From IMG/VR virus record IMGVR_UViG_3300032312_001958: DNA of 64,000 nucleotides; one strand, written 5' to 3'. This DNA comes from a virus (lineage: Duplodnaviria; Caudoviricetes). A program made the position numbers and the translations under genes. Below the pieces are notes generated by a model. That model was not told where the DNA came from. It saw only the letters and a list, made by a program, of their open reading frames with translations, and did not search any database. Positions 8,420-54,617 of the stretch are shown here, one piece after another (positions within the stretch are counted from its first letter, which is position 1; every line of letters starts with the position of its first letter).

Positions 8420-9284
8420 AGGAAAAGATAGAATATTAAAGTTAATTGACGAGTTAGGTCTTTGGAATGCTAAAGAAGCTTTGGGTATTTCATTAACCAA
8501 AATTGTTAAATTAGTTGGGCTAAAGATTCATCCAAATTTGGCTGGCGAAATAATAATTGAAGGTATTAATAATGAAACCCTACCAACAGAATATAAAGAA
8601 TTTAAGATTTCAACAAATTCTGATGGCGTTGTTTATTGGGAAGGTAAATTTTATGGGGACCACTTCTTAGCTGATATGGTTGAAACAATATGGATAATGG
8701 CAACACCATTTTGGGATGGTGAAAGTTACACTCCAGTCGAAACTGATTGGTATTCGTTGGTTGATGGGTCTAAAAATACACTTATTGCTGAAATTGAAGG
8801 AGGTGGTGATTACTTTGAAACAATTAGTGATAAGGTTTTTTTTGATAGTGTAGAAGAGTTACATAATTGGTATAATGAGTATTATTTACCACGTGTGTAT
8901 AAAATAATTATGAATAACTTCTTACTTAGTCTACGACAAGATATGGATGATAGGTTAGATGACAATATGGGTTATAGTCCTATGAGAGAAAGTATTGCTA
9001 TAGTATTAAGAGAAGAAAGTGAAGGTGATGGTAATGTAGAAAAATTTATAAAAAAAGCCACAAATATAATCAATACAATTAAATTTCCTGCGGTTAAACG
9101 TATTGATTTTGATTACGACGAAATGATGGATGGATATCATGTTAATATATTTTTTGATAGACAATTTGCTATAGATAATCCCAAAAATTTTAATAAAGTA
9201 AAACAAAAAGCAGTCCAAGAAATTGGTTCAACCGTTACAAGTTATTTCCCGTTTAAATTTTTATTTTATTTGCATTACGAATAG
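8412..9284 (+). CDS. hypothetical two-domain protein
   Basis: 290 aa; internal MRESIAIVLREE leader-like junction. Confidence 0.75.
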   Translation: MSKGKDRILKLIDELGLWNAKEALGISLTKIVKLVGLKIHPNLAGEIIIEGINNETLPTEYKEFKISTNSDGVVYWEGKFYGDHFLADMVETIWIMATPFWDGESYTPVETDWYSLVDGSKNTLIAEIEGGGDYFETISDKVFFDSVEELHNWYNEYYLPRVYKIIMNNFLLSLRQDMDDRLDDNMGYSPMRESIAIVLREESEGDGNVEKFIKKATNIINTIKFPAVKRIDFDYDEMMDGYHVNIFFDRQFAIDNPKNFNKVKQKAVQEIGSTVTSYFPFKFLFYLHYE

Positions 9285-9645
9285 TAATTACTTACTATCC
9301 AATATCTCTTCCACCAATTCATCTCCTCTCCACACACCTTCAATTTTTGTAAATACTTTATGATTTAATACCTCTTCCACCTTTTGTTCTCCCCACGTAC
9401 ATGCAATTGGGGTTGTTTCTACCTTATGATTTAATACCTCTTCCACCACGATTAATTCGGTTGAAGAAAACGTATTAGTTGTTTCTACCTTATGATTTAA
9501 TACCTCTTCCACCTGAACTTCTCAGTTCCAATCTCAGGCAGTGGTTGTTTCTACCTTATGATTTAATACCTCTTCCACCCTTTTCTTGTGTTTTCTGTCC
9601 AAAGGCAGAGTTATGGGTACCTTACTATTTAAGACCTCTTCCACC
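9280..9645. CRISPR. orphan CRISPR-like array, 36-bp repeat GTTGTTTCTACCTTATGATTTAATACCTCTTCCACC with five 30-bp spacers, in frame with the 9534-9878 gene
   Basis: Identical repeats at 9412-9447, 9478-9513, 9544-9579; degenerate copies at 9280-9315, 9346-9381, 9610-9645; exact 66-bp period; no cas genes seen. The architecture is certain, CRISPR function is not. Confidence 0.6.
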
Positions 9646-9878
9646 CAAGAAGCAAGTATTGGCTCAAAGTCTTCACGTTCCAAAGAGAAAATCTCAAAGA
9701 AATTTGGAAAAAAACCATATCTCCAATACAATGCTCCACTATTCTCAAAATCAAAATACCAATACTTTTCTTCTCTATCAATGAACCATATGGAGCCATT
9801 GTATGGGATTATCTCCGCATTACCTAACTCTTTGTATAGACGTTTAAATATAATTTGTTTTAACTTATCTGAAACCAT
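9534..9878 (-). CDS. small protein whose 3' end runs into the repeat-spacer array
   Basis: 114 aa, related to the IFKYL..FFS..WVE family; TTTG..TATCTTTG promoter 4 nt before ATG. Confidence 0.8.
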   Translation of the reverse strand: MVSDKLKQIIFKRLYKELGNAEIIPYNGSIWFIDREEKYWYFDFENSGALYWRYGFFPNFFEIFSLEREDFEPILASWVEEVLNSKVPITLPLDRKHKKRVEEVLNHKVETTTA

Positions 9879-9914
9879 AGGACAAAGATAAGATAAAAAT
9901 TGTGGAACTACAAA

Positions 9915-10256
9915 TTAATATTCAGATGGTATTTTTAATGACGATTTGAGTTGCATTATCTTGTTGGACATTTGACCCTCCAAGTTTAGGGTTTTCTTAA
10001 CCCATTGTCCAACAACTCTGGTAGATTGATAATCGTTAAGAGAAAAGAAGGAAGAAACTTCTTTAATTAAATCCATATAAATAAAACACAATTCATTATT
10101 GGCGTGATTACCACCATATTTAATCTGAGCAAACTCATCATCGTTAGGGTGTTTAAAGTATGTACTGGCACCAATCTTAGATATTTCAAAATCTTGGCTA
10201 TTAAGATACTTGAATACGGATTTATCTAGTTGTGATTCGGTGATTAGGTATTTCAT
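9915..10256 (-). CDS. MKYLITESQ paralogue family protein
   Basis: VFKYLNSQDF..EVSSFFS..QWVKKTL. Confidence 0.85.
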   Translation of the reverse strand: MKYLITESQLDKSVFKYLNSQDFEISKIGASTYFKHPNDDEFAQIKYGGNHANNELCFIYMDLIKEVSSFFSLNDYQSTRVVGQWVKKTLNLEGQMSNKIMQLKSSLKIPSEY

Positions 10257-10624
10257 GAGAATGTTACACTTTTAACTGATTTAACTTCGTAGTCGGGGAA
10301 GTATTCATTAAATACATCTGACAGAATGAAATCGCTGTGAACCCACCAAATTGGATGGGGAAATGCCTCACCATATATATTATCAAGTTGTCTACTATAA
10401 TATAATTCACCACTTTGTTTTATATACATCATCATTAGTTTTCCTTCAGAGTCGAATAAACCAATTCTAAATTCACTTTCATCATATGAATCAACCAAAT
10501 TTACAAAATAAGGAACAAACTTATGTTTAAGTTTCTCATACTTTTCAGCGTACTCAATATTTCTCCAAGTTCTTTCAAGCTCGGTAATTAACTTATATTG
10601 TGATTCTGTTATAATGTATTTCAT
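10253..10624 (-). CDS. MKYIITESQ-leader protein
   Basis: Leader; TATTTAT upstream. Confidence 0.8.
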   Translation of the reverse strand: MKYIITESQYKLITELERTWRNIEYAEKYEKLKHKFVPYFVNLVDSYDESEFRIGLFDSEGKLMMMYIKQSGELYYSRQLDNIYGEAFPHPIWWVHSDFILSDVFNEYFPDYEVKSVKSVTFS

Positions 10625-10647
10625 GTAGTGATAAATATCTTATTATT

Positions 10648-11013
10648 TTACTTAACTATTAATCTGTAATACATGTCACCATTTCCAGCATCATTAACAT
10701 CATCATAATTAATTTTAAGATTTAGTTTATCACCGACCCAATCCGCAATAACTTTTAATAATTTAGATTTAGGTATAGGTAAAAATAAAGTTACCAACTC
10801 AATTAATTCACGACTAACATATAACCAATCTCTAACTTCACCAAAAGCATTTAAGTGATAGACACTTATTTGTGCGGTATCATCTGATTCGTTATTTAAA
10901 AAATAAATGTAATTGTTAAATTTTTTACCATTATCCATTATAATAAAATTATGACTGTCCAAATATTTTTGTACAACATTTTCTAATTTAGATTCTGTGA
11001 TAATGTATTTCAT
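10648..11013 (-). CDS. MKYIITESK paralogue family protein
   Basis: VQKYLDSHNF..IYFLNNE..DWVGDKL. Confidence 0.85.
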   Translation of the reverse strand: MKYIITESKLENVVQKYLDSHNFIIMDNGKKFNNYIYFLNNESDDTAQISVYHLNAFGEVRDWLYVSRELIELVTLFLPIPKSKLLKVIADWVGDKLNLKINYDDVNDAGNGDMYYRLIVK

Positions 11014-11366
11014 ATGTATAAATCAAGGAATTGTTCTAATGTTATTCCAAGAGCGGAGATACCCAAAAGGCTCATAAAGTTGGACTCTTCATACCCATCA
11101 CCTCTATTATCAAGAATCAATGGGTGGTTTGAACTATAATTCATTTGATATAATACCTTATGATTATCATCCAATTCTATAAGATACATCGGACCATAGT
11201 TATCACCTAATTGTCTTCTTCGTAAACCATCGTAAGTAAAATAGAAATCAAAATCATTCAGTATTTTATATATGCTCGGGTCAAGCTCCACACGACCTGT
11301 GAGGTCAATATTAAACTTGTTTTTAATAAATGTTTTTAATTTAGATTCAGTGATTAATAGTTTCAT
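11010..11366 (-). CDS. MKLLITESK-leader protein
   Basis: Start reassigned to the leader Met. Confidence 0.75.
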   Translation of the reverse strand: MKLLITESKLKTFIKNKFNIDLTGRVELDPSIYKILNDFDFYFTYDGLRRRQLGDNYGPMYLIELDDNHKVLYQMNYSSNHPLILDNRGDGYEESNFMSLLGISALGITLEQFLDLYI

Positions 11367-11379
11367 GTTATTATAAATA

Positions 11380-11712
11380 TTAATTAGACGGAATCTGCAT
11401 CCACTCAGATTTAATATTATTGGCCCACAAACAATAATCAATATCTACCTTTAAGGTCTCCCCAACCCATCTACCGATAGCTTCCCTAGCATCATAACCT
11501 TGCATAGAAAAGAAAGAAGCAACCTCACCAATTAATCCTGTATATATGACACATTTACTATCCTTATTAAAATATCTAATCTGTGCATATTCATCACCTT
11601 CTGAATTTACAAAGTATACACCATCACCTTTCTTAATCTGAATGAAGTCCTGATTATCCAAGTATTTAAAAATTAATTTGTCAAATTGTGATTCGGTGAT
11701 TAATACTTTCAT
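11380..11712 (-). CDS. MKVLITESQ paralogue family protein
   Basis: IFKYLDNQDFIQI..FVNSEGDEYAQIRY..RWVGETL; start reassigned. Confidence 0.85.
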   Translation of the reverse strand: MKVLITESQFDKLIFKYLDNQDFIQIKKGDGVYFVNSEGDEYAQIRYFNKDSKCVIYTGLIGEVASFFSMQGYDAREAIGRWVGETLKVDIDYCLWANNIKSEWMQIPSN

Positions 11713-11744
11713 ATAATAGTAAATATAATTATATTTATAATAAT

Positions 11745-12107
11745 ATGAACTTAGAAAAGACAATAAGAAGAATATTAAAGGAAGAGTCCAAAAAAGACAG
11801 GTTGATTGATAGATATATAACATCATTAATTAATCCTAGTAGTGGTAAATACAATCGTGATGATAAAAGGTTTGAGATGAGTGACAATGATGATAACCTA
11901 AATGCGATTATATTCTTTAACCAACAAGATGACGTGATGATGGTAATGATTGATGATAGTATATGGGAACAAGTATCCGATATGTTTTCAATAGATGATT
12001 GGAATGAGATGAATGATTATTTAGTTAAATGGTTCCAAGATAATTTTGACGGGTTAGAGGATTTATCTGAAGTAATTACATTTGATAACGCTGAATTTGC
12101 TTACTAA
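11745..12107 (+). CDS. protein with MNLEKTIRRILKEE leader
   Basis: Leader; KWFQDNF motif. Confidence 0.8.
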   Translation: MNLEKTIRRILKEESKKDRLIDRYITSLINPSSGKYNRDDKRFEMSDNDDNLNAIIFFNQQDDVMMVMIDDSIWEQVSDMFSIDDWNEMNDYLVKWFQDNFDGLEDLSEVITFDNAEFAY

Positions 12108-12108
12108 T

Positions 12109-12729
12109 ATGAACCTACAAGAAACAATAAGAAGAGTACTAAGAGAAGAATTATCACCAAGGATAAGAAGAAGACTTTCTATTGATGAAATGGAAAATGA
12201 GTTTCTTGAATCTTTTGAAGGTGCTTATCGTCTTACAAAAGACAGAAAGGTTTTAAGTTCACATTTTTTAGATGTGTTACTCTACACAACAATAACCTTT
12301 ATGATGGATAGTGTTCATTGGAGATTTGTTAGCACATTACCTGAAGATGAATTTTGGTATGATGATATACATAAAGAATTAGAAAATCATTATAGAGACA
12401 GAATTATACAGATGTATAATGAAAGGAAGGGAATTAAAGAATCAATATTAAGGGAAGAAACTGAGTTACCTGCTTATATTAGAAGAAGGGTGACCTCTGA
12501 TGACCTTGAGTGGTTGATTAGGGATGTTAAAATTTCTTTAAGTAGGGGAAAGAATAAAAGTGATGCCTTATATGATGCAATTCAAAATCTTATTTCGTCA
12601 AACAGAGAACTGTTAAAGGATTATGATATGTTCCAAGACGTGTATGCATTTGACGAACCACTAATTAGATATATCAATTCAAAATTGGACGAGGAACCGT
12701 TAAATGAATCTACATGTGGAAGATTATAA
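12109..12729 (+). CDS. two-domain protein with MNLQETIRRVLREE leader
   Basis: Start reassigned; second unit begins IKESILREE..YIRRR. Confidence 0.8.
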   Translation: MNLQETIRRVLREELSPRIRRRLSIDEMENEFLESFEGAYRLTKDRKVLSSHFLDVLLYTTITFMMDSVHWRFVSTLPEDEFWYDDIHKELENHYRDRIIQMYNERKGIKESILREETELPAYIRRRVTSDDLEWLIRDVKISLSRGKNKSDALYDAIQNLISSNRELLKDYDMFQDVYAFDEPLIRYINSKLDEEPLNESTCGRL

Positions 12730-12749
12730 TGGGGAGTGGAAAATAATTA

Positions 12750-13058
12750 CTATCTAATTATAACTTCTTTAACTCTTCTATCCAAAGTATTCTCAACCCA
12801 TCTAGCAATAACATATTTAGAACTATTAAATTCTATAGAGAAGAAATCTTTAATCTCATCAATTAACTCAAAACTTATTACACACTCACCACTTCTAAAG
12901 TATTCGATTAATGAGTCGATTAATGAGTCGATATATTCACCACCTTCAGAATTGGCGAAGTATATTGCGTTTCCTCTTTTAATCTGAATAAAGTCCTGAT
13001 TGTCAAGATACTTAAAGATTATTCTATCTATTTGCGATTCTGTTATAAGGTATTTCAT
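12750..13058 (-). CDS. MKYLITESQ paralogue family protein
   Basis: IFKYLDNQDFIQI..RWVENTL; 12-bp tandem duplication at 12904-12927. Confidence 0.85.
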   Translation of the reverse strand: MKYLITESQIDRIIFKYLDNQDFIQIKRGNAIYFANSEGGEYIDSLIDSLIEYFRSGECVISFELIDEIKDFFSIEFNSSKYVIARWVENTLDRRVKEVIIR

Positions 13059-13074
13059 TATTGATAAATATTAG

Positions 13075-13485
13075 TTAACAGTCACCTGTATTATGGACCT
13101 CAATATTATGACCTTTAATTAAACCGCCACCGAACTGATATAATGCCTTAGAAATAACATCTCTATACATACTTCTAAGACCTTCGTCAAACATATACCT
13201 TCCCTCATTCTCAGGAGCTGGCTTAGGTGTATAGACAACCAAATCCATAGAGTACTGAGTGGGTATGATAATATATTTACAATATATCAAAAGTGGGGAA
13301 ATATCATTTTTAAATATAGTTTTTGTTAGAAAGATAATATCTTCCTTAGTTCCCTTAATACCCATCTCATTAATAATCTCTTTAGGCGTCCTACTTGTCA
13401 TTTCACATAGTGCACGCATTCCAAATTTCTCTAATAAAGGTTTAAGGTTTTTATTACTTTGATTTTCGGTGATTATTACTTTCAT
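13075..13485 (-). CDS. MKVIITENQ-leader protein
   Basis: Leader. Confidence 0.75.
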   Translation of the reverse strand: MKVIITENQSNKNLKPLLEKFGMRALCEMTSRTPKEIINEMGIKGTKEDIIFLTKTIFKNDISPLLIYCKYIIIPTQYSMDLVVYTPKPAPENEGRYMFDEGLRSMYRDVISKALYQFGGGLIKGHNIEVHNTGDC

Positions 13486-13493
13486 ATGATATA

Positions 13494-13823
13494 TTAGTTA
13501 TTAACTCTTATCCATACATTCGGTGCGGGTTTAGCCTCACGGGTTTGTACAACTATCATTTTGAGGGTATCCTCGACCCATCTACTGATAAGTTTAATGG
13601 ACTCGGAGATACTCAAAGAAAAGAAAGAAGACACTTCATTAATTAAACTTACGACAATGTAACACCAACCACTAATTTTATCATATCTAATCTCAGAGTA
13701 TTCATCATCTTCTGAATTAACAAAAAATATAGTTGCACCCTTTCTAATCTGAACAAAATCCTGATTGTCCAAATATTTAAAGATTGCTCTGTCTAATTGT
13801 GATTCTGATATTAAGTATTTCAT
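13494..13823 (-). CDS. MKYLISESQ paralogue family protein
   Basis: IFKYLDNQDFVQI..EVSSFFS..RWVEDTL. Confidence 0.85.
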   Translation of the reverse strand: MKYLISESQLDRAIFKYLDNQDFVQIRKGATIFFVNSEDDEYSEIRYDKISGWCYIVVSLINEVSSFFSLSISESIKLISRWVEDTLKMIVVQTREAKPAPNVWIRVNN

Positions 13824-14201: not shown

Positions 14202-15590
14202 ATGAAAAACTTTACGGTATCCCAACTAATGGAAATGGGGGCACAATTTCAGAAAGACAGAAAAATCAACATATCTACTGACACAAAAACGGTACGTGAA
14301 TTATATGAGTTATACTTAGATGGTAAACTTGTATTACAGGATTGGTTTCAGCGTGGGTTTCACTGGGACCACAATAAGAAAGTAATGTTAATACATACAT
14401 TACTTAATACACCGAAACTTCTTACGGAGGTTGTGTTTTTCATTGATAATGATGGTAAATACTATGTTGCCGATGGTCAACAAAGACTTACATCTATTTT
14501 TAATTTTTTGGATGGTCACTACGATTATAATGGGGCGGATTTGGAACCGAGCACATTATTCTATGGTGTCAAATATGGTACCAAGGACTTTCAAAAGTGT
14601 TCAGACAAATTAAAGAATACTCCGATTAAAACGACGGAGATTGATAACTATGGTCTTGATGGGGATAAGATTAATATTCTAAAGTCATATGTCTTTATGA
14701 AATGGAATAATGGTTCAAACCTTAACGCAGCCGAGTTACGTGGAGGATTATATAGTACGGTGAATGCATTAATTAAACCATTGGTCGATGGGATGGATGA
14801 TAATACAAAACAAGCTCTAATCTTATCAAAGAAGTTTGGACGGAATAGAATCAATGAATTATATGAGAGATTGATATATCATATGGTTCAAAAAGATTTG
14901 GTTAGGGACCCGACACCGAAACAGTTGTTAAGTATTCACGGGGATAAAGAAATTGACAGTGACCAACAAAACATTCTAAGAGTATTAAATACTGTTACAT
15001 CGGCGGTTGTGACATATAGAAACACACATAAGACTTACCAAGCGGGTACAACGTCGTTACGTGATGTTATAGTGGCGTCAACCAAGTTAAGAAAGATGGG
15101 CAGACTTGTAACATTAGAAGATATGAAGAATTATATTATATCTACCATGTTAAAACTAAACACCGTATTTTCTCAGAACAATAAGTTCATTGTATATCAA
15201 AAGGCGGATATGGATAATATGAATGAGGAAATAAATAAAGAATGGTACCAAACATACTTTAGATTCTTCGGACGTGGACAAGATGGTCATACAATAAGAA
15301 GAGTTAAGTTCCTTGTAGATAATATGGATAAATTTGTAGATGTTATACAAAGAGATAAGATTCGTAACTTTCCACAAGATATGCAAATACGTGTACTGAA
15401 TAATCAGGATAACAAATGTACTCTATGTGGTGAACATCTTACTATGTCAGATGCCGAAGCTGACCATATAGTAGAACACTCTAAAGGAGGACTAACAGAA
15501 GAAAGTAATCTACAGATGTTACACAAAGAATGTCATAAAGAAAAGACACGTGGATTTAATACAAAGTTAGACTTATTTAATGTGGTATAA
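14202..15590 (+). CDS. DUF262 (ParB-like) plus C-terminal HNH endonuclease, GmrSD-like
   Basis: FQRGFHW, VADGQQRLTSI, CTLCG..DHIVEHSKGG..NLQMLHKECH. Confidence 0.8.
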   Translation: MKNFTVSQLMEMGAQFQKDRKINISTDTKTVRELYELYLDGKLVLQDWFQRGFHWDHNKKVMLIHTLLNTPKLLTEVVFFIDNDGKYYVADGQQRLTSIFNFLDGHYDYNGADLEPSTLFYGVKYGTKDFQKCSDKLKNTPIKTTEIDNYGLDGDKINILKSYVFMKWNNGSNLNAAELRGGLYSTVNALIKPLVDGMDDNTKQALILSKKFGRNRINELYERLIYHMVQKDLVRDPTPKQLLSIHGDKEIDSDQQNILRVLNTVTSAVVTYRNTHKTYQAGTTSLRDVIVASTKLRKMGRLVTLEDMKNYIISTMLKLNTVFSQNNKFIVYQKADMDNMNEEINKEWYQTYFRFFGRGQDGHTIRRVKFLVDNMDKFVDVIQRDKIRNFPQDMQIRVLNNQDNKCTLCGEHLTMSDAEADHIVEHSKGGLTEESNLQMLHKECHKEKTRGFNTKLDLFNVV

Positions 15591-25448: not shown

Positions 25449-25874
25449 ATGAAAATTTCTTTACACGAAAACATTGGGAGAATTAAGTCATTATTATATG
25501 TTAATGAACAAGCCGGCTCCGCACCTTGTAAACAACCCAACCAGATAAAAACAACTTCAGGTGAGACCGAACTCATGGGATATATTTTAGATGTTCTTGA
25601 TGATAACAATATAAATTTAAAAAATTGTAAAGATAAAAAATGTATTGATGATAAAATGTTGGCTGAAAAAATTATAAGTGAGTTACTTAACTCTTTAGTT
25701 GATAAAAGAGATTTGGGTACTGAGTTAAGTTCTGAGAACAAAAGAAATTTTGACTACTACACTAAAATAATGAGAGGGATATTCCCGACGTATAATAAAG
25801 CTCACTATAATAGAGGCACATGCGCCATGAAATCAAAAGTTAGTAAAACAACTACAACAACATATTATAAATGA
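25449..25874 (+). CDS. hypothetical protein with LHENIGRIKSLL leader
   Basis: Leader; TATTTAT upstream. Confidence 0.7.
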   Translation: MKISLHENIGRIKSLLYVNEQAGSAPCKQPNQIKTTSGETELMGYILDVLDDNNINLKNCKDKKCIDDKMLAEKIISELLNSLVDKRDLGTELSSENKRNFDYYTKIMRGIFPTYNKAHYNRGTCAMKSKVSKTTTTTYYK

Positions 25875-26983
25875 TTATGAGAACAAATTTATTTGAAATT
25901 AGTCAAGACGAAAAAAACAGAATTTTAAACCTTCATGAAGGTCACACAAAAAATCATTATTTAAATTTAATTAATGAAGAATCAACGTACAATCCTAAGT
26001 CAGAAGCAATTCAAAAAAAATTAAGTGAATTAGGTTACGGTAAAATTATTGGAAGTGCTGATGGTAAATACGGACAAAAAACAGCTTGTGCGGTTGCTAA
26101 ATTCCAAGAGGATAACAAATTAACCGTTGATGGTAAAGTTGGTAACGTAACTGCTACAAAACTTGGGGTTGATGCTTATTTTCCTAAAGGTGTTAGTATT
26201 ATTTCTTGTGGTACCAAAAATACTGACAATAAACAAAAAGTGACTGATGACTCAGGTAAACAAAATTGTAAGTCAGTTTTACCTGAAACATGTTCAAAAA
26301 TTAGTCCAAATAAGGAAACTACTATTGGTAATGGTGGAAGTGAGGGTTGTTCACAATATGTTGGACTGTCTATAGGTGAAAAATTAGGTGACGCTTGGAA
26401 AGCCTTTAACGCGGCTAAAAAATACGGAGTTAAATATAATATGTTTACAGACGGTTCAATTGATTGGAATAATGTAAGGAACAAAATGAAATCCAATAAA
26501 ATAAATTCATCAACTTGTGGTTGTTTTACTGAGGAAGGTGAAAGTAAAGATAAATCTTGTAGTTCAGGTTCTGAGATTGCCAAAACTATTAGTTCATTTT
26601 ATCCATCATCGTCTAATTTCAGTAATGGTTCGTTGAAAGTAGGTGATATAGTTGGTATGTATTACAGAGATTCAGGAAACAAAGGTAAAGCGTTTTGTGA
26701 AAGAGTTTTACAAAGAGGATTAGATGGTAGTGGTAATGTTAAAGATACTGACCCATTTACATTTAATACTCACGTTGGATATGTTGGAGCTATTAAAAAT
26801 GGTGTGCCAATAATTTATCATAGTGTGCACGGAACAAGATTAGCAACACCAGCAAACCAATTAAAAAGTAAAAACGGTAGTGCGATGATTGTTTGGGTAA
26901 CAGGTGGACCTCAAAGTGGGTCAGAAAATAAATCAAATCCTTTTGATTTATTTAATGATTTTAAAAATTTTTTAAAAAAATAA
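25871..26983 (+). CDS. peptidoglycan-binding domain plus NlpC/P60- or CHAP-like hydrolase
   Basis: ADGKYGQKT..FQEDNKLTVDGKVGNVT; GCSQYV, LKVGDIVG, THVGYV. Confidence 0.65.
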   Translation: MIMRTNLFEISQDEKNRILNLHEGHTKNHYLNLINEESTYNPKSEAIQKKLSELGYGKIIGSADGKYGQKTACAVAKFQEDNKLTVDGKVGNVTATKLGVDAYFPKGVSIISCGTKNTDNKQKVTDDSGKQNCKSVLPETCSKISPNKETTIGNGGSEGCSQYVGLSIGEKLGDAWKAFNAAKKYGVKYNMFTDGSIDWNNVRNKMKSNKINSSTCGCFTEEGESKDKSCSSGSEIAKTISSFYPSSSNFSNGSLKVGDIVGMYYRDSGNKGKAFCERVLQRGLDGSGNVKDTDPFTFNTHVGYVGAIKNGVPIIYHSVHGTRLATPANQLKSKNGSAMIVWVTGGPQSGSENKSNPFDLFNDFKNFLKK

Positions 26984-40724: not shown

Positions 40725-41021
40725 ATGTTGTTTGACTTTGAAACATACATAAACTTATTAAAAAGTTTTGGTGAGGAAAAACTGACTGAGCAAGAATCAA
40801 CTCCCCCGCCTTCAGGTGGTGCATCAGGAGGAGGTTCTACACCTCCAGCGGCATACCCAACAGTTACTAAATGGGAGAGTGGTCTAACAAGAGGTAAAGC
40901 GAATCAAATTGCTAATACTAAATGGGAGAGTGGTCTAACAAGAGGTAAAGCAAATCCAGTTAATAATAAAGAAAAATGGACAACAGGAATTAAACGAGGA
41001 AAGGCAAATACGTTATTATGA
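40725..41021 (+). CDS. small protein with TKWESGLTRGKAN repeats
   Basis: Two identical 36-bp copies (40865-40900, 40916-40951) plus a degenerate third. Confidence 0.75.
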   Translation: MLFDFETYINLLKSFGEEKLTEQESTPPPSGGASGGGSTPPAAYPTVTKWESGLTRGKANQIANTKWESGLTRGKANPVNNKEKWTTGIKRGKANTLL

Positions 41022-42601
41022 AAAATACAGATTTAAAAAAAATTGTTAGAAAAGTTTTATTAGAGGCGGTAGATACTTCATTGGTAAATAGAATAATTAA
41101 AAAATTAGATAGTTCTAGTTCTCAGTATAGTTGGACTCTTGGAGGAGGGACTGATGAGGATGCGTACGTTAGTGCGATACAAGAAATACCAAATTTTGAA
41201 ACTGCAAAGGCAATCAACGACAAATTTAATTTAAGAGATTCAATAGACGACGAATTTAATTTTGATAAAGATGATGATTGGGAGTATGTTAGTCAAATTT
41301 TTGACCACATGGAAAGTATTGGGGTTAAAGTGATAAATCCAACTAATCAGGATTCTTTTAATTTTGATTTTTCAAAAAATAGGTCTACTATAGGTGGAGG
41401 TGATTCCACTGACCAAGGTGGGGGACAAAAAACACCTGATAAAGAACAAGAGGTGGTTATTTCAAAAGGAAAATGTAAAGACGCCCCATCTCTTACTAGT
41501 ATATGTTCAGGTTCGGCTTATTTAAAGAGTTGTATGAAAGGTGTTAAAGGTTCTAAAGACGATGCCATATCTAAAGTACAAGAATTTTTAATAAGTAAAG
41601 GTTTTAAAAAAGTTTCAAAAACGGGAGAGGTAGATGCGATTTACGGTCCTTTAACTAAAGAAATGGTTAAACAATATCAAACATCTGTGAATATAAAGGC
41701 CGATGGAATTGCTGGTCCTCAAACTGTCTCAACTATGGGTATTTGTAAAGTTACTAATAATCAACAAGGTGGTACACTACCGGGACCGTCACTACCAGGA
41801 CCATCACTACCAGGACCATCATTACCAAGTCCTGACGGTAGTATACCTACAAAACCTGTTGATGACCCACTTGATGTTAAGGAAACAATATGTAGACCTG
41901 CAGATAAACAAGTTATTACGGCTTATAATTCAATAGTTGATAATATAAAATCTGAAGAACCTAATTTTTTGAGGAGGGAGTGTAGATTAGTAATTAATTA
42001 TCAAATGGAACAAAAAGAACATTGTGATAATTTAGAAGAAGTAATATGTTTTTGTGGGACTAAAGCCAGTTCAGGTGACGATGGGTATTCTTATTTGGGA
42101 GAAAGAAAAAAGTATTTGAAAAATTATGTTAAGACTTACTGTAAATCTGAATTTGTAAAAGATGATAATAAACCAATCACCGTAGATAAAAATAGACCAA
42201 TAATTCCCGGATGTCAAACACCTGGAAGTGTTATTGCAATTCTTCAACAGGAAGATGATAAATTAAGTAAAGAAGATTGTAAAATATTATTTAATGAAGC
42301 GGTTAATTGGTATAACTCATGGAAAAAATGTGAAAGAGGGAAAAACTCTCCAAATCCTGCATACAAAGACAAATGTTTTTCTTGTTTAAATAGATATAAT
42401 TTCAATTGGAAAGATTTAGGTAGTGGGGAAAATAAAGTTATGAAGATGTATAATTTTAATAAAAGAGAGATTAATAAAAAACAAAGAAGAGAACTTACAA
42501 GAATGGAATCAATTGAATCTTTAAACACTGCTCTTTTGTACATGAATTATGATATGAATAAAACTTTAACTGAAAATAAAAATATAATTTTAAAAAAATG
42601 A
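41018..42601 (+). CDS. Cys-rich protein with peptidoglycan-binding domain
   Basis: VQEFL..VDAIYGPLT..YQ..ADGIAGPQT; GTDED; LPGPS x3. Confidence 0.7.
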   Translation: MKNTDLKKIVRKVLLEAVDTSLVNRIIKKLDSSSSQYSWTLGGGTDEDAYVSAIQEIPNFETAKAINDKFNLRDSIDDEFNFDKDDDWEYVSQIFDHMESIGVKVINPTNQDSFNFDFSKNRSTIGGGDSTDQGGGQKTPDKEQEVVISKGKCKDAPSLTSICSGSAYLKSCMKGVKGSKDDAISKVQEFLISKGFKKVSKTGEVDAIYGPLTKEMVKQYQTSVNIKADGIAGPQTVSTMGICKVTNNQQGGTLPGPSLPGPSLPGPSLPSPDGSIPTKPVDDPLDVKETICRPADKQVITAYNSIVDNIKSEEPNFLRRECRLVINYQMEQKEHCDNLEEVICFCGTKASSGDDGYSYLGERKKYLKNYVKTYCKSEFVKDDNKPITVDKNRPIIPGCQTPGSVIAILQQEDDKLSKEDCKILFNEAVNWYNSWKKCERGKNSPNPAYKDKCFSCLNRYNFNWKDLGSGENKVMKMYNFNKREINKKQRRELTRMESIESLNTALLYMNYDMNKTLTENKNIILKK

Positions 42602-45424: not shown

Positions 45425-46645
45425 ATGAAATTCAACCAAGTTACAAATGCGGGTGATAAAAAAATTACCAGAGGATATGGTATGAAAATGCACCCTATTC
45501 ATAAAAGAATGAGAATGCACCATGGAATTGACATTCCAGTATCGACAGGTCATGACATTTATGCAATTGCGGATGGTGTAATTATCGATAGTGAAATTAG
45601 AGGAGACGCTTGTGGAGGTACTATAAAAGTTTCTCACGGAGTTGTAAACGGTAAAAAATTATACACTAGATTTTGTCACTGTAGTAAACTTTTAAAAAAC
45701 AAAGGTGACATTGTTAAAAAAGGAGATGTCATTGCAAAATCAGGTGGAGGTAAAGGTGACCCAGGCCGAGGTGGGTCCACGGGTCCACATATTCATTTTG
45801 AAGTTTACGAAAATGGAAGTACTGTTAACCCAATGCCTTATTATAAAAATTCTGTAGGTGGGGAACAAACTGAGTTACCGAGTGAAGTTGATTTGGACAA
45901 ATATAAAGATGAGTTAGATATGGACACAGGTGATACAAAAAAAACATCAAGACAAGTTGCTAAAGATTTAATAAAAAAATTATTTGGAATAGATAAAAAT
46001 TCGTCTATTGAAAATGAGGTTGTAAATGAAATATTTAGAGTTAGAGAAATTATAGAAGAGCAAATTCCGACTTTTAACATTAACACAGGTAGTAATAATA
46101 ATAATAATAATAATGACGGTAAAACTTGCGGACCGTATGACCCTAATTCACTACCCGTTAAACCATGTACTTCAAGAGTTGCAAATGGTAACGTGATTAC
46201 ATATACAGGGTCAGATGTTATTGCTCAAGACACTGGCACTATTACGGGTGTCACTAAAGGAAGTTATACTCAGGCAATAAAAATTGGTAATACCGCTTAT
46301 TATTGGAATGGTAGCTTAGATAAACAAATGGGTGTTAATATAAATAAGGGTGATAAATTAGGTATGACAGGGTCAGATAAAAAATTAATTACCCAACCTT
46401 ATAGTTCACAAACTCCAAATAAGACTCAAACTTCTACTCCTTCTAAAAATGATGGAAAGACAGTAAATCCTTTATCTCAAACCTCAAGTGACTCTAGAGG
46501 TCAGGCTAAAGATTACGTTAAAAATATTATTAACACATTAACAGGTACTCAAACACAAGCCCCAACTACAAAAACGGAATCAATTGAAAAATTAAAACCT
46601 TTAATTGAAAACGAATTAAAAAGTTTTAAAAAATTTATAAAATGA
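45425..46645 (+). CDS. M23 family metallopeptidase
   Basis: HHGID, YTRFCH, STGPHIHFEV. Confidence 0.9.
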   Translation: MKFNQVTNAGDKKITRGYGMKMHPIHKRMRMHHGIDIPVSTGHDIYAIADGVIIDSEIRGDACGGTIKVSHGVVNGKKLYTRFCHCSKLLKNKGDIVKKGDVIAKSGGGKGDPGRGGSTGPHIHFEVYENGSTVNPMPYYKNSVGGEQTELPSEVDLDKYKDELDMDTGDTKKTSRQVAKDLIKKLFGIDKNSSIENEVVNEIFRVREIIEEQIPTFNINTGSNNNNNNNDGKTCGPYDPNSLPVKPCTSRVANGNVITYTGSDVIAQDTGTITGVTKGSYTQAIKIGNTAYYWNGSLDKQMGVNINKGDKLGMTGSDKKLITQPYSSQTPNKTQTSTPSKNDGKTVNPLSQTSSDSRGQAKDYVKNIINTLTGTQTQAPTTKTESIEKLKPLIENELKSFKKFIK

Positions 46646-47814: not shown

Positions 47815-48207
47815 TGGTGGAGATGCCGGGGGTCGAACCCGGGTCCAAATAAGTAAGACATAAAACACTACACGTTTAGGTCATTGTTTTTCTAAACAAT
47901 CCGAAACTTCACAATTCCCTTATTTTATAGTGGTTCGGTTTACTGAGAACTAATCCTCCACTTCGTTTCTTTTTGGGTAGAAACCACACCACAACTACGA
48001 CTTCTGTTGCAAGGTTGTATGTCTGCCGACCCCTAGTAGGTTAATTCTAAATTAAGCTACAGATACTTCTTCAGTACGGATTAAACCGATTGTAGAAAGT
48101 TTGTTGATAACGTTGCCGTTTATAATTTGAATCAGTTTAACGGAGTTAACTCAGCTCCGACGTGCGTTTTATGGCGTATCATACCTGTCAAAGCCAAAAA
48201 CATCCCC
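47815..48207 (-). ncRNA. ssrA: tmRNA
   Basis: 5' GGGGATG..GAC, 3' CCGGGTTCGACCCCCGGCATCTCCACCA; tag ORF 48117-48052 GNVINKLSTIGLIRTEEVSVA*. Confidence 0.92.
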
Positions 48208-48276
48208 ATAAATCAAAGAACTATTGTGTAAAGATATAAATATATTCTTACTTATACAAGTATTTATTAAAAAAAT

Positions 48277-49359
48277 ATGAAACTTTACGAAGCATTAAAA
48301 AAATTTATTCAGGGTACGGCCGATGAATGGGACGTAAGGAGGAGTGATGATAACACTAGAATAGGTAGAGTGAATCAAAATAGTTTAGGTAAATCGTTAG
48401 TTACATTAACATTTTATGAAGAGGAATTTGCAAAAATTTTTTTGGGGGACAATTCCGAATCTGATAATAACTCCTATTATTTCAATGTAGCATTTAATAG
48501 AAGGGGATATTATGGAGGTTCAGTATTTGTCGACGCTCATTATTTTGGGGATGATGAGTGGAAATATGGCGCCTGTTGGTGGTATTTTAATGAAGATAAC
48601 AGAAATTTATTTTTATCAATTTTAAAAATACTTAATCCGGGATTAGTTGAACTAGATGATAATGGAAAACCTGATGACGAGGCGTTTCAATTTTTACTAA
48701 ATAAATATACTGATGAAATTGAACAAATTAATTACGAATACGCTGAACTTTATGATGAGGCATTAGTTGTTGGTTTAAGGGAGTATGTTTTAAAAAAAAC
48801 TTGTGATGTATTTTCAGAATTTGGAATTTATGAGAAAGATTGTGCCCGTCAATACTTAACAACAGTTTCGGTATTAATGTCTTTATGGAAAATGACTGGT
48901 ACTGATGAAGACTCAAATGTTTTAGATTTATTACATAATTTAGCAATACAAAGAAATTTAATAATTGATGAAGATTTATATGAAGATTATTACTCATATT
49001 TTGACGAAAAAAACTTTGACTCAGAATCATTTAATAGAACTGTAGAAAGACAATTAGAAAAAATAAAAGACAAAATTGATGAGGAAATAGATGAAGGTAC
49101 ATTACAAGATAGTATTAAAATACATAATCAATTATCAAAATTAGGTTATAAGTTTGGTAGGTGGTATAGTTTACCTGACCAAAAACATTTTAATAAAATT
49201 GGAAAAAAGAACGAAAAATTTAAGTTACTTAACGTAATTGGGGGAAAAATAGTATTCAATAGGTTAAATCCTGACAATGGAATAGCACAGTCCGCAATGG
49301 GACCCGAAGATTTTTTTAATTATTTATACCATCCAGAATTGTTTGAATCAAAAAAATGA
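48277..49359 (+). CDS. hypothetical protein
   Basis: 360 aa, TATTTAT upstream. Confidence 0.8.
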   Translation: MKLYEALKKFIQGTADEWDVRRSDDNTRIGRVNQNSLGKSLVTLTFYEEEFAKIFLGDNSESDNNSYYFNVAFNRRGYYGGSVFVDAHYFGDDEWKYGACWWYFNEDNRNLFLSILKILNPGLVELDDNGKPDDEAFQFLLNKYTDEIEQINYEYAELYDEALVVGLREYVLKKTCDVFSEFGIYEKDCARQYLTTVSVLMSLWKMTGTDEDSNVLDLLHNLAIQRNLIIDEDLYEDYYSYFDEKNFDSESFNRTVERQLEKIKDKIDEEIDEGTLQDSIKIHNQLSKLGYKFGRWYSLPDQKHFNKIGKKNEKFKLLNVIGGKIVFNRLNPDNGIAQSAMGPEDFFNYLYHPELFESKK

Positions 49360-49373
49360 TTATCTTTGTCCTT

Positions 49374-50204
49374 ATGGATAAAAATATAGAATTTCTTAAA
49401 ACAGTATTATCAATTCCAACTCACACTTATCATGAAGATAGGATGATTGATTTTTTAATTGATTATTTAAGTGAAAAAAAATACCCTTTTAAAATTGATG
49501 AGTTGGGTAATATATACGTAACAAAAGGACTAATTTCAGAAAACGAATTTTATCCTTGTGTCGTTGCTCATACTGATACTGTACACCCTATTGACACTAT
49601 CAATATTAGAGAAGAACAACGTAAAGATTCCAAAGGGAATTTAAATTTTAGTTTGAAAGCTTATAATGATGAAGGAGAACCTACAGGGATTGGGGGTGAT
49701 GATAAATGTGGAGTATTTGCTTGTTTACAACTTTTAGAAGAATTTGAAGTTTTAAAAGTCGCATTTTTTGTGTCTGAAGAAGTTGGTTGTATTGGCTCAA
49801 AACAGGCTGACCCTGTATTTTTTAATGATGTAGGGTACGCAATTCAATTCGATGCTCCTGATGATTATATGGTTACAGAATATTGTTTTGGTGTAAAAAT
49901 GTTTGAAACTGATTCTCCGTTTCATACTACAGCTAAAACAGTATTAACTGAAAACATGTTATCAGAACCAAGATTTATGCAACATCCTTATACAGATATT
50001 TGGCAATTAAAACAAAAATTTGATTTTTCATGTATCAATCTTTCTGTTGGTTATCACTCGTACCATACAAAACACGAATATGTGGTTGTAGATGAAGTTT
50101 TTGCAGGTATTGAATCAGGTAAAAAATTAATTCAAGAGTTGGGAAATACAAAATATGTTTATAAACATATTCCTCGAGACTTAACAAAAGGATTTTTTAA
50201 TTAA
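49374..50204 (+). CDS. M20/M28/M42-clan zinc peptidase
   Basis: VAHTDTV, GGDDKCG, EEVGCIGS, FD, YHTKHE; TATCTTTG upstream. Confidence 0.85.
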   Translation: MDKNIEFLKTVLSIPTHTYHEDRMIDFLIDYLSEKKYPFKIDELGNIYVTKGLISENEFYPCVVAHTDTVHPIDTINIREEQRKDSKGNLNFSLKAYNDEGEPTGIGGDDKCGVFACLQLLEEFEVLKVAFFVSEEVGCIGSKQADPVFFNDVGYAIQFDAPDDYMVTEYCFGVKMFETDSPFHTTAKTVLTENMLSEPRFMQHPYTDIWQLKQKFDFSCINLSVGYHSYHTKHEYVVVDEVFAGIESGKKLIQELGNTKYVYKHIPRDLTKGFFN

Positions 50205-50219
50205 AATAAAAAAGGGGGT

Positions 50220-52262
50220 TTATTCCCCCTTTTTCTTTTTCCCTTTTTTAGTTGTTTTATTTTTTGTAAGGATAACATCTTCATCTTTAATTGAAATATT
50301 GTAGGATTCATTAATTTCAATATTATTCTTTAACACTTCATCCGACACAAAATCTTCAATCTTTTCTTGTATTGCTCTTTTTAATGGTCTTGCGCCATAT
50401 ACCTCGTCAAATCCAACTTTAGAAATATATTCAATAACTGAATTATCAAATGTAATATCGTAACCAAGTTTAACTAACCTATTTGTTAATTTTGATACCT
50501 CAACTAAAACAATTTTTTGAATGTCTTCGTCTTGTAATGTGTTGAATATTATAATTTCATCTAACCTATTAATAAACTCAGGGGCAAAATAGTTCTTTAA
50601 CTCTTTAGTAAGAATTCCTTTTTTAGCTTCTTCATTTTTATAGACATTTTTTGATGAATCAAAACCAATTCCAGCCCCAAAGTCTTGTAGTTTTTTAACA
50701 CCAATATTTGAAGTCATAATTATTAAACAATTCTTAAAATTAATCTTACGGCCAAAACTATCAGTCATATATCCTTCGTCTAAAAGTTGAAGTAACGCTG
50801 AAAAAATATCTTTATGTGCTTTCTCAACTTCATCAAACAACACTACTGAATATGGTTTAGTTTTTACTTGTTCAGTTAATTGTCCTCCCTCGTCATAACC
50901 CACATATCCAGGAGGTGAACCAATCAATCGAGATACTGAGTGTTTTTCTTGGAATTCACTCATATCTACCCTTATTAGACTATCTTCACTTCCAAATATT
51001 TGTTTTGCCAATTCTTTGGCCAATAAAGTTTTACCTACACCTGTTGACCCTAAAAATATAAATGAACCAATTGGTTTGTTTGGGTCTTTAATGCCTAATC
51101 GATTTCTACGAATAGACTTTGCAATTTTGATAACCGCTTCTTTTTGACCTATTACAGACTTGTTAAGTTCTTCTTCTAAATTAATTAAAACATTTTTATC
51201 GTCTAAACTTAATTTATTTAATGGGATTTTTGTCATGGTTGAAACCACATCATAAACTAATTCCTCAGGTACGTCTTTTCTATTATGTAACAAATCCTCC
51301 TCAAATAACTTCTTTTCAATGTCTAAAAGATTTAAAACTTTTTTTTCTTTGTCCCTTAAACTAGCGGCTTCTTCATAATTTTGTTTTTTAACAACTGATA
51401 ATTTTTGTTGTTTAATTTCCATCGCTTCTCTTTTTAATTCCTCAATAATCTCAGGGTTTTTAATATCAACTTGAGCTCTTGCTCCGACCTCGTCTAAAAT
51501 GTCAAAAGCTTTATCCGGAAATTCTCTATCCGTAATATATCTCTCCGCTAAATCAACACATATTTGTAATATATTATCTGAAAATATTACTTTGTGGTAG
51601 TTTTCATATTTGTCTTTAACGTTTTTAAGAATTTGAAAAGTCTCCTCTTTAGTTGATGGACTGACTATTACTTTTTGAAATCTTCTATCTAACGCTCCAT
51701 CCTTCTCAATTTGTTTTTTATACTCGTCTAAAGTTGTTGCTCCGATACATTGTATTTCACCTCTTGATAATGCAGGTTTTAATATGTTAGATGCGTCAAG
51801 AGACCCTGAAGCGTTACCGGCACCTACAATTGTATGAATTTCATCAATAAATAAAATCACATTTGGATTAGCTTGAATTTCTTCCAAAATGACTTTTAAT
51901 CTTTCTTCAAATTGTCCACGATACTTGGTACCCGCAACAATTGAATTGATTTCTAGAGATAGAATTCGTTTATCTAAAAGATTTCTTGGGCAGTCGCCCT
52001 CAAATATTTTCATAGCCAATCCCTCAACAATTGCAGTTTTACCACAACCAGGTTCACCTATGATTATTGGGTTATTTTTCTTTCTTCGAGATAAAATTTG
52101 AGCAATTCTAATAATTTCGTTTTCTCGACCAACCACAGGGTCTAATTTACCTTCCTCTGCCAATTTAATTAAATCTCGACTAAAATTATCTAAAACAGGA
52201 GTATTACTATTAGTCTCCACTTTTTTTGGATTTTTCATCCCGTCATCAACTGAATCTGTCAT
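50220..52262 (-). CDS. clpC: ClpC-like AAA+ chaperone lacking the N-terminal Clp repeat domain
   Basis: GEPGCGKT, FIDEIH, UVR-like middle domain, GSTGVGKT, FDEVEKAH, IGF loop, GARPL. Confidence 0.9.
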   Translation of the reverse strand: MTDSVDDGMKNPKKVETNSNTPVLDNFSRDLIKLAEEGKLDPVVGRENEIIRIAQILSRRKKNNPIIIGEPGCGKTAIVEGLAMKIFEGDCPRNLLDKRILSLEINSIVAGTKYRGQFEERLKVILEEIQANPNVILFIDEIHTIVGAGNASGSLDASNILKPALSRGEIQCIGATTLDEYKKQIEKDGALDRRFQKVIVSPSTKEETFQILKNVKDKYENYHKVIFSDNILQICVDLAERYITDREFPDKAFDILDEVGARAQVDIKNPEIIEELKREAMEIKQQKLSVVKKQNYEEAASLRDKEKKVLNLLDIEKKLFEEDLLHNRKDVPEELVYDVVSTMTKIPLNKLSLDDKNVLINLEEELNKSVIGQKEAVIKIAKSIRRNRLGIKDPNKPIGSFIFLGSTGVGKTLLAKELAKQIFGSEDSLIRVDMSEFQEKHSVSRLIGSPPGYVGYDEGGQLTEQVKTKPYSVVLFDEVEKAHKDIFSALLQLLDEGYMTDSFGRKINFKNCLIIMTSNIGVKKLQDFGAGIGFDSSKNVYKNEEAKKGILTKELKNYFAPEFINRLDEIIIFNTLQDEDIQKIVLVEVSKLTNRLVKLGYDITFDNSVIEYISKVGFDEVYGARPLKRAIQEKIEDFVSDEVLKNNIEINESYNISIKDEDVILTKNKTTKKGKKKKGE

Positions 52263-53435: not shown

Positions 53436-54617
53436 ATGAGTAAGTTAAAACCGGTTGGTAGCGAAAAATTAGAAGGGTTGGATAAAATCCAACGTATTAT
53501 GGAAATCGCTAGATATAAAGAGGTTATCCCACAATCAATAAATGAAGTATCATCTCGCGAATATCAAATAGTATTAGCAGATGGTGAAACGTATTCTATC
53601 GACAAAGAAAAATTGGGATACGTAATCAAGAAAAAAGTTAATGAAAGTTTTGATTATGTTGACCCTATGAAAAATAGGTCTCATTATAAATCTTATTCCC
53701 AAGCATTTAAAAAACTTAACTTGATTGCTCAAGAAGTTAACAGATTAACCGAGACTGAAGAAAATATTTCTTTATTTCATGAGGATAAAAAATATTTGTT
53801 AAAAACCCCAAAACCAAAAGTGGAGGACGAACCTCAAGGTCCAGCACCTATGGGGCCACCATCAGCAGTTGCGGAACCATCACCTGTACCGTCACCTGAA
53901 CCTGAAATGGGAGGAGAAGATATGGGACCTGAAATGGGTGGAGAAGATATGGGGTCTGAAATGGGAGGAGAAAACGGAGAAGATATGGGGTCTGAAATGG
54001 GAGGAGAAGAAACTTCTTTTAAGGACATTCAAAAATTGACAGGAAAACTATCTCAAAAAATTAGAGAAATTGAAGACGAACAACCTTTAACAGGTAAAGA
54101 TGTTAAGTACGTAATTAATTCAATTTTGTCGGCTTTAAATTTGGATGAGTTATCAAGCGATGATAAAGAAGAAATTGTATCTAGATTTGAAGAAGAGGAT
54201 GAGGATAATATGCCATCAGACGATATGGATTTTTCATCAAGTGAGGAAGATATGGGACCTGAAATGGGGTCTGAGGATGAGGAAGAACAGACTCAACCTG
54301 AAATGGGGGAATCGGCTCCGGTTCACAAATCGTCAATTGCGTCGGACAATTTTGAAATGTACAATATGAATGAATCTAAAATTGAAAACATTCTTAAAAG
54401 TTATTTCTTTGAGTCTAAAAATGAAAAACAATACAAAAAAAATAGATTTTCATATGTTACAGATTTTGCTGTGACAAAAAAACAAGCTAATGTTGCTAAA
54501 AATTTACTGGAGGCGGCACCAAGTTTACATTTTGTTGGTAGAACAACAAAGAAAAATTTAATATTTGAAAATAACGGACAACAAGTAAAAATTACTCCTA
54601 ACGGTAATATTTTATGA
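53436..54617 (+). CDS. acidic low-complexity head-region protein
   Basis: KPVGSEKL..IQRIMEIA; EMGGEDMG repeats; IQKLTGKLSQKIR. Confidence 0.75.
   Translation: MSKLKPVGSEKLEGLDKIQRIMEIARYKEVIPQSINEVSSREYQIVLADGETYSIDKEKLGYVIKKKVNESFDYVDPMKNRSHYKSYSQAFKKLNLIAQEVNRLTETEENISLFHEDKKYLLKTPKPKVEDEPQGPAPMGPPSAVAEPSPVPSPEPEMGGEDMGPEMGGEDMGSEMGGENGEDMGSEMGGEETSFKDIQKLTGKLSQKIREIEDEQPLTGKDVKYVINSILSALNLDELSSDDKEEIVSRFEEEDEDNMPSDDMDFSSSEEDMGPEMGSEDEEEQTQPEMGESAPVHKSSIASDNFEMYNMNESKIENILKSYFFESKNEKQYKKNRFSYVTDFAVTKKQANVAKNLLEAAPSLHFVGRTTKKNLIFENNGQQVKITPNGNIL

Follow-up and report, generated by a model that had tools for sequence, protein, structure and literature searches.

The DNA analysed here, called the window throughout, is a 64,000-nucleotide stretch of a virus of the Caudoviricetes (Duplodnaviria; IMG/VR record IMGVR_UViG_3300032312_001958), and we characterized within it a minus-strand gene whose 3′ end carries an array with CRISPR geometry. 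The array spans positions 9280-9645 and is composed of six copies of a 36-bp repeat and five 30-bp spacers, with a period of exactly 66 bp. Read along the minus strand, it begins with the repeat nearest the gene's N-terminal domain (9610-9645), a copy that differs from the central repeats by seven mismatches and codes for the C-terminal helix of the gene itself (WVEEVLNSKVPIT), continues with a translated spacer, or cassette (9580-9609), and then with three identical repeats (9544-9579, 9478-9513 and 9412-9447) that enclose a stop-bearing spacer (9514-9543) and a further spacer (9448-9477). The remaining elements are a spacer at 9382-9411, a repeat with five mismatches (9346-9381), a spacer at 9316-9345 and a degenerate terminal repeat (9280-9315). 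A 23-mer of the repeat found five matches in the window at three or fewer mismatches, compared with none in 100 shuffles, and the five spacers are mutually unrelated, with 61 G+C among their 150 positions. These coordinates and the spacer comparison agree with what an earlier note, made from the sequence alone, had claimed for the layout, and the observed array is confirmed.

The N-terminal domain (N-domain) occupies an open reading frame of about 78 codons (9646-9878, minus strand) that is homologous to neighbouring paralogues, and its frame runs on through the whole array. The only stops in that frame are two TGA codons, at 9534-9536 and 9522-9524, and a natural TAA at 9288-9290 inside the terminal repeat. 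Both TGA codons lie in the spacer at 9514-9543, where the earlier note had seen them, so that the array gene (9534-9878) encodes a protein of 114 residues that ends after one cassette and one further repeat. Past the stop, the spacers at 9448-9477, 9382-9411 and 9316-9345 are all in frame, and the distal array (9288-9513) stays open up to the TAA, the type of end seen in the arrays of relatives. The copy in the window is a truncated member of its family, and the older part of its array would be left untranslated but intact. Two stops within a single 30-mer fit better with an unfiltered insert than with two point mutations, and recombination among the three identical repeats would excise both of them. 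We also considered recoding of TGA (genetic code 4 or 25), which would allow both stops to be passed, and rejected it: under code 11 the coding density of the window is high, and 11 of its 49 long frames terminate at TGA, which is an ordinary stop here. Four nucleotides upstream of the ATG, on the minus strand, the directly read sequence TATCTTTG (9883-9890) forms a putative promoter motif; it fits the Bacteroidota TAnnTTTG −7 motif, which we take to have a promoter role here.

Just upstream of the array gene, also on the minus strand, lie array-less paralogues of the N-domain, at least seven within 9915-13823 and at least eight when the stretch is taken to 14136; these small paralogues start with MKY(L/I)ITES, have the N-domain fold in common with the array gene and end in a W-V..L helix. 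The W-V..L motif of the first repeat aligns with the C-termini of the neighbouring paralogues, in line with the earlier claim that the first copy is the gene's own C-terminal motif. Because the paralogues without an array end in the same helix, the repeat stems from coding sequence of the gene itself that was duplicated, and not from an imported CRISPR repeat. In an AlphaFold2 model of the homologue P0025, residues 1-88 have a predicted local distance difference test score (pLDDT) of about 80 and are predicted to form a helix, four strands and two helices, the last N-domain helix being the first repeat, and the array part is predicted to be disordered (pLDDT about 30). No family in Pfam, PHROG, NCBIfam or PADLOC matched the array protein or its neighbours. 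A PDB fold search with the N-domain gave no match with Z above 5, and a BFVD structure search returned members of the family alone.

The array gene has many relatives. The exact 23-mer of the repeat is present in 14 viral contigs of IMG/VR, and five JGI phage contigs were reached through one spacer; one to five arrays lie on each contig. Each array in these relatives is the 3′ part of an open frame, follows an N-domain of about 90 residues and ends in a partial repeat, giving a family plan of N-domain followed by n units of 10 variable residues and the 12-residue repeat motif VEEVLNHKVSTT. A protein search (E ≤ 0.001), which scored only the 8000 candidates sharing most words, returned 1159 homologous metagenomic proteins, none with a name or a Pfam family. 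The architecture is common to 16 sequences read directly and to 121 parsed proteins, in which the motif-to-motif spacing is exactly 22 residues in 561 of 634 cases. CRISPR arrays are defined by near-identical direct repeats of 23-55 bp separated by unique spacers of near-constant length; the window and 44 arrays of relatives have this geometry, with 36-bp repeats, 30-bp spacers and a 66-bp period. To judge from these sequences, the window gene belongs to a widespread family in which phage genes carry cassette arrays that have CRISPR geometry and are translated.

Among 81 distinct spacers, an in-frame stop occurs in one, that of the window, leaving 80 stop-free, while in each of the other five frames stops occur in 19-50 of the 81 (31-62 stop-free). 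Repeat variants are mostly synonymous (Leu TTA/TTG/CTA, Ser TCC/TCT, Val GTA/GTG), with a ratio of nonsynonymous to synonymous substitution rates (dN/dS) of about 0.33; for orthologous cassettes it is about 0.26, from 18 changes only. The arrays in relatives are open frames under purifying selection. Open frames together with mostly synonymous repeat variation indicate that the array product matters as a protein. Canonical CRISPR arrays, in contrast, are non-coding loci.

These observations bear directly on the earlier proposal that the locus is a cas-less mini-array or repeat decoy, acting as RNA either by supplying guides or as a Cas sponge, with a translation that is incidental or protects the transcript. 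CRISPR geometry and polarity speak for such a role, as do two precedents: huge phages reportedly carry arrays without adaptation genes (Al-Shayeb 2020), and RNA anti-CRISPR repeats are reported to exist (Camara-Wilpert 2023). In the commonest repeat variant, weak pairing of the two ends is also possible (−6.3 kcal/mol, z = −1.5). This hairpin, however, lacks conservation and is absent in the window, where the repeat folds at −0.5 kcal/mol with z about 0, much as the earlier note had read it, compared with z = −2.6 for a type II-C and z = −3.4 for a type VI-B repeat. The CRISPR-DR families of Rfam gave no match to the phage repeat, no anti-repeat was found in the window, and a 19-mer scan of one genome each of 185,579 species yielded 10 single matches, which we read as chance, and no bacterial array with the phage repeat. 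Nor did any spacer match the phages or plasmids searched. With the frame kept open and repeat changes biased to the synonymous sites of the minus-strand frame, the data do not support RNA as the main function of the array, and we regard this explanation as highly improbable.

We found that the array unit behaves as a DNA-level block of 36+30 nt rather than a protein-defined one, as shown by its phase, composition and divergence. The conserved 36-nt block is out of codon phase: in coding orientation it opens with a G that fills the wobble position of cassette codon 10, a hypervariable one, and it closes with the first two bases of an ACN Thr codon that takes its third base from the spacer. Because the repeat's first base places a fixed G in that wobble position, cassette residue 10 is NNG-encodable in 338 of 348 cases (97%), compared with about 68% at positions 1-9, a bias that selection at the peptide level alone does not predict. 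Pairwise spacer distances are bimodal, at 0-6 or about 22 mismatches of 30; cassettes are either near-identical (orthologous) or random, with differences at all bases. Their amino acid composition follows codon degeneracy: it correlates better with a translation of random DNA having equal base content (r = 0.85) than with the proteome of the phage (r = 0.63). The G+C content of the spacers is 42%, compared with 30-32% for the phage genome, which upholds the earlier statement that they lie above the background. In about 95% of units the insert has the fixed length of 10 residues, and none of its positions favours particular residues.

An ordinary protein tandem repeat would be expected to leave a different record. 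Under this explanation a 22-codon unit multiplies by unequal crossing-over, purifying selection and gene conversion preserve the motif, and the linker is free or diversifying, with no integrase and no foreign DNA. It accommodates a translated array with synonymous variation in its repeats, a repeat derived from the gene's own helix, and footprints of recombination that include mosaics, swaps and, in P0118, one whole unit duplicated in tandem; the coding-like periodicity of the spacers, and searches that found neither donor DNA nor a cas gene, point the same way. It also predicts graded divergence between units and conservation that follows codons, whereas we observed bimodal linkers and a conserved block that is out of phase, with its fixed wobble G in a hypervariable codon. 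Further, it does not readily explain linkers that resemble random DNA and lie 10-12 points above the genome in G+C despite an AT mutation bias, a linker of 10 held so constantly with no preferred residue at any position, or the two stops in the window's spacer, and, with the array part predicted to be disordered, no structural ruler is visible. The earlier note had listed alignable spacers, variable spacer length, absence of spacer turnover and synonymous divergence of repeats as the marks of such a repeat; among these, the comparison with relatives revealed only the synonymous repeat changes. We judge an ordinary tandem repeat to be unlikely.

The composition of the cassettes also bears on whether the protein is a multi-core peptide precursor or display scaffold, in which 12-residue recognition sequences flank 10-residue cores and the cassettes arise by some phage-encoded mechanism other than host Cas1-Cas2. 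Precursors of ribosomally synthesized and post-translationally modified peptides, such as the cyanobactin precursor PatE, can hold several cores that are hypervariable, next to recognition sequences whose very nucleotides are conserved, an architecture that the phage arrays recall; the weak purifying selection on cassettes, the enrichment of A at codon position 2 (polar residues) and the predicted disorder of the tail also speak for this reading. Against this, the cores are random-like in composition and have no conserved residue, the genes have no recognisable maturation enzyme or protease as neighbours, the protein shows neither a signal peptide nor a leader of a known family, and the 36/30 geometry of the DNA is left unexplained. 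A precursor of this kind is, in our estimation, very unlikely.

The arrays carry a direction. Across 44 of them, mismatches to the N-proximal repeat climb from 0 to 7.5 with distance, and strains of an orthologous gene have their distal cassettes in common while differing in those adjacent to the N-domain. As the arrays of relatives vary most on the N-domain side, the N-domain is their functional 'leader' side. In one set of near-identical loci, L036 differs from L035, L037, L038 and L039 by exactly 66 nt at the junction of N-domain and first repeat, and its extra unit consists of a novel 30-mer and a repeat identical to the first repeat's private variant, which is what leader-end integration with repeat duplication would be expected to produce. 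The decay gradient, the shared distal cassettes and the one-unit difference at the junction are together the pattern of polarised growth with a degenerate terminal repeat.

Bacterial arrays with the same dimensions are found in the predicted host group. If the window phage and its family belong to the freshwater jumbo 'bS21' phages of Bacteroidota, their hosts would be predicted to be mainly Flavobacteriia (PMC9723584). Of 401 Flavobacteriaceae genomes, 48 contained a match to a GTTG pattern with 36/30 periodicity, and at least 17 of the loci examined are true arrays with a 36-nt repeat starting GTTGTGG and spacers of 30 nt in 78% and 29 nt in 20% of cases, so that the II-C geometry that the earlier note had given for Bacteroidota is seen in actual genomes. 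The phage repeat starts GTTGT(GG or TT), its commonest variant starts GTTGTGG like the bacterial II-C repeat, and its GTTGT end points away from the side on which the arrays vary. In Flavobacterium columnare, II-C Cas1-Cas2 loads a VI-B array that lacks its own Cas1, in trans (Hoikkala et al. 2021, PMC8092290), as the earlier note had also said; the II-C and VI-B repeats share mainly the leader-distal GTTGT, and the VI-B array accepts self spacers (PMC8092290). The shared geometry, the orientation of GTTGT and the loading of VI-B arrays in trans make host II-C Cas1-Cas2 the most economical candidate for the integrase.

Some features of the bacterial loci are recorded here in their own right. 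The GTTGTGG II-C repeat is nearly invariant across many small Flavobacteriaceae genera (L059-L088), and the flank after it is conserved in the same loci, with anti-repeat-like pieces and a poly(A)/poly(T) pair. Of 13 bacterial leaders (from L059-L087), 9 have a run of at least six A that begins 51-53 nt away from the last repeat; 18 of 41 N-domain flanks of the phages have such a run beginning at 51 nt, as the antisense of Phe-Phe codons.

We propose the following mechanism. A CRISPR-type integrase would insert a 30-bp fragment at the junction between the N-domain and the first repeat, duplicating the 36-bp repeat; the most likely enzyme would be a Flavobacteriia host's type II-C Cas1-Cas2, which would work in trans, as with VI-B arrays that have no Cas1. 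Homologous recombination between repeats may afterwards delete and swap units, and selection would purge inserts that break the frame, although in the window an insert with two TGA codons survived. A translated array to which CRISPR-type integration has added units, probably through host Cas1-Cas2 in trans, and which recombination and frame selection have shaped is the best explanation that we can offer, and we hold it to be reasonably probable. Our confidence in its parts differs. That the integration itself was carried out by a CRISPR-type integrase, namely host II-C Cas1-Cas2 in trans, appears to us evenly poised. The fullest version, in which this enzyme, during infection, uses the 3′ ends of phage genes as a leader-repeat junction and writes arbitrary 30-bp pieces into them, with open-frame selection then leaving a lengthening series of strain-specific 10-residue cassettes and with spacer acquisition exploited, or suffered, as a source of protein diversity, falls a little short of an even chance.

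Several observations weigh against integration as the source of the array, and the first group concerns its dynamics. The 66-nt difference of L036 is equally explained by a deletion between identical repeats in the other strains. Some strain differences are precise 30-for-30 swaps or internal presence and absence of units, which point to recombination. Successive repeats alternate between two synonymous Leu-codon variants in L007 (665-2015) and L001 (5089-5388), a pattern that serial duplication of the first repeat does not predict and that again points to recombination. From swaps, internal presence and absence, and alternating variants, it follows that homologous recombination between repeats also reshuffles the arrays. 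Simple duplication of the first repeat likewise fails to predict the seven positions at which that repeat differs from the next three, identical ones in the window, which suggests that the window array, too, was rebuilt by recombination. The earlier idea of a bank of alternative C-termini selected by repeat recombination is borne out in this respect by mosaic cassette maps and the swaps, although it leaves the source of the unrelated cassettes unexplained.

The codon periodicity of the spacers also counts against random capture of DNA. In a simulation with stop-filtered random genomic fragments, the G+C content of the spacers was reproduced, whereas their periodicity (codon positions 1, 2 and 3 are enriched in G, A and T, respectively) exceeded that of the fragments. 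This excess would reflect either further selection for polar peptides or a slow adjustment to phage codon usage over long residence.

A second group of contrary observations concerns the enzyme. No cas gene was found on the phage: the 30 largest open reading frames of the window contain no Cas or reverse transcriptase Pfam family, and neither Cas1 nor RVT_1 was found in five related contigs of 133-241 kb (45-82% complete) in searches with positive controls, so that the absence noted earlier extends to relatives. The phage and II-C repeats are identical at 16 of 36 positions, which is not significant given a shared GTTG (P = 0.09), and the likeness between phage flank and bacterial leaders is not significant either (P = 0.27). 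Spacers of 29 nt, which make up 20% of those in bacterial II-C arrays, do not occur in the phage arrays.

Finally, we found no donor for any spacer in searches that covered a small part of sequence space. There was no match for 81 spacers in the loci of relatives and a whole 240-kb relative, for about 34 spacers and the window array in isolate phages (INPHARED), for the spacers in PLSDB plasmids, or for 6 spacers in IMG/VR, and 2 spacers compared with JGI metagenome contigs matched phage arrays only (five for the second spacer). The 19 spacers of L009 had no donor in 401 Bacteroidota genomes, and none was found for the 19 spacers of L006 when 401 Flavobacteriaceae genomes and sets for single genera, the largest with 267 genomes, were scanned; the scans of bacterial genomes, including nine genus sets, gave only weak, AT-rich matches to N-domain DNA. 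A reverse search with 380 spacers of bacterial II-C and VI-B arrays did not match the window or its relatives. The protospacers with a common protospacer-adjacent motif that the earlier note had looked forward to were not among the results of these searches, which cover few of the possible donors. Its view of the gene end as an integration site is otherwise the one that best fits the translated arrays, the 36+30 block, the variation at the N-domain end and the single-unit difference.

The window comes from a phage of 30% G+C with a T4-type portal and terminase, a transfer-messenger RNA (tmRNA) and a ClpC-like ATPase. The tmRNA (128 bits with Rfam) adjoins the ClpC/ClpB-like ATPase at 47815-52262, and the DNA of the ATPase gene is closest (about 67%) to Flavobacteriaceae genomes. 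We tried to assign a host from these two genes and rejected the result, since the ClpC-like gene has 64-72% identity across the phylum and its best matches, to Flavobacteriaceae, are not discriminating. Elsewhere in the window, the open reading frame at 14202-15590 fuses a GmrSD N-terminal domain to an HNH nuclease, a phage-encoded enzyme of a restriction type directed against modified DNA, and the genes at 25871-26983, 41018-42601 and 45425-46645 encode two peptidoglycan-binding PG_binding_1 proteins and one M23 peptidase. Other in-gene tandem repeats are present upstream of the terminase, at 53900-54008 and 55533-55711, with periods of 27/36 bp and 99 bp and acidic or Pro-rich products. The 240-kb relative G002 contains, at about 169-186 kb, an internally repetitive region of about 16 kb with 48% G+C, compared with 32% for its genome.

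If the proposed mechanism is true, the chemistry of CRISPR spacer integration would have a second natural outcome, the addition of peptide segments to a translated gene, and viruses would have a new route of protein diversification. The arrays would then also show, in nature, how repeats can originate from coding sequence, and they would document the DNA that a phage meets during infection, and the donors would be expected to carry a common motif, for example NNNNNTAAA, beside the end that faces the N-domain. Without an integrase, the family would still be unusual, with more than 1100 members in lake phages and with protein tails that are built from exact 36+30-nt modules, random-like in composition, under purifying selection and predicted to be disordered. 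It also carries a warning for annotation: CRISPR finders would call such genes arrays, and gene callers would call such arrays genes.

The known systems closest to the phage arrays in geometry are the II-C and VI-B arrays of Flavobacteriaceae, which agree with them in the 36-nt repeat, in the 30-nt spacers, in a GTTGT that terminates the repeat opposite the variable side, and in variation that is polarised, with decay at the distal end; VI-B arrays lack their own cas1 and cas2 and also accept self, non-phage DNA (PMC8092290). Unlike these, the phage array lies inside a gene, in frame and translated, and its repeat has its origin in coding sequence. Outside GTTGT(GG), the phage repeat is not significantly similar to theirs, it is not accompanied by a hairpin, an anti-repeat, 29-nt spacers or effector and adaptation genes, and no protospacers were found for its spacers.

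Off-target integration by Cas1-Cas2 reportedly creates neo-CRISPR loci as rare laboratory events with the E. coli type I-E system, each with one or few units (Nivala et al. 2018). As in the phage arrays, a non-CRISPR genomic sequence is there duplicated around an inserted spacer, and a duplication of this type would account for a repeat derived from the gene's last helix. The neo-CRISPR loci have few units and are under no selection, whereas the phage arrays are long, occur in several paralogous genes of many phages and are kept as protein. Huge phages with genomes above 200 kb reportedly carry CRISPR arrays without Cas1 and Cas2 (Al-Shayeb et al. 2020). Those arrays are reportedly non-coding and lie next to effectors or away from them; their repeats belong to known types and their spacers are directed at phages or at genes of the host, in contrast to the in-frame protein part that is found here, and to our knowledge none of the huge-phage arrays of the 2020 work has been reported as part of a protein.

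Translated CRISPR-type arrays were not described in the literature searched, including the searched passages of PMC10392669 and PMC9723584, and the phage family is not among the systems discussed in those passages of the repeat-protein survey by Altae-Tran et al. 2020 (PMC10392669). We considered a diversity-generating retroelement as the source of the cassettes and rejected it, as the five relatives have no RVT_1, with positive controls, and the cassettes differ at all bases. Such retroelements and the hypervariable repeat proteins, including transcription activator-like effectors and leucine-rich repeat proteins, nevertheless share with the phage family a conserved scaffold with hypervariable segments, and a diversity that is seen both within a protein and between strains. 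In them, the variable residues are part of units that are homologous to one another, and point mutation or templated A-mutagenesis alters these residues, whereas in the phage family whole 30-nt blocks are unrelated to one another.

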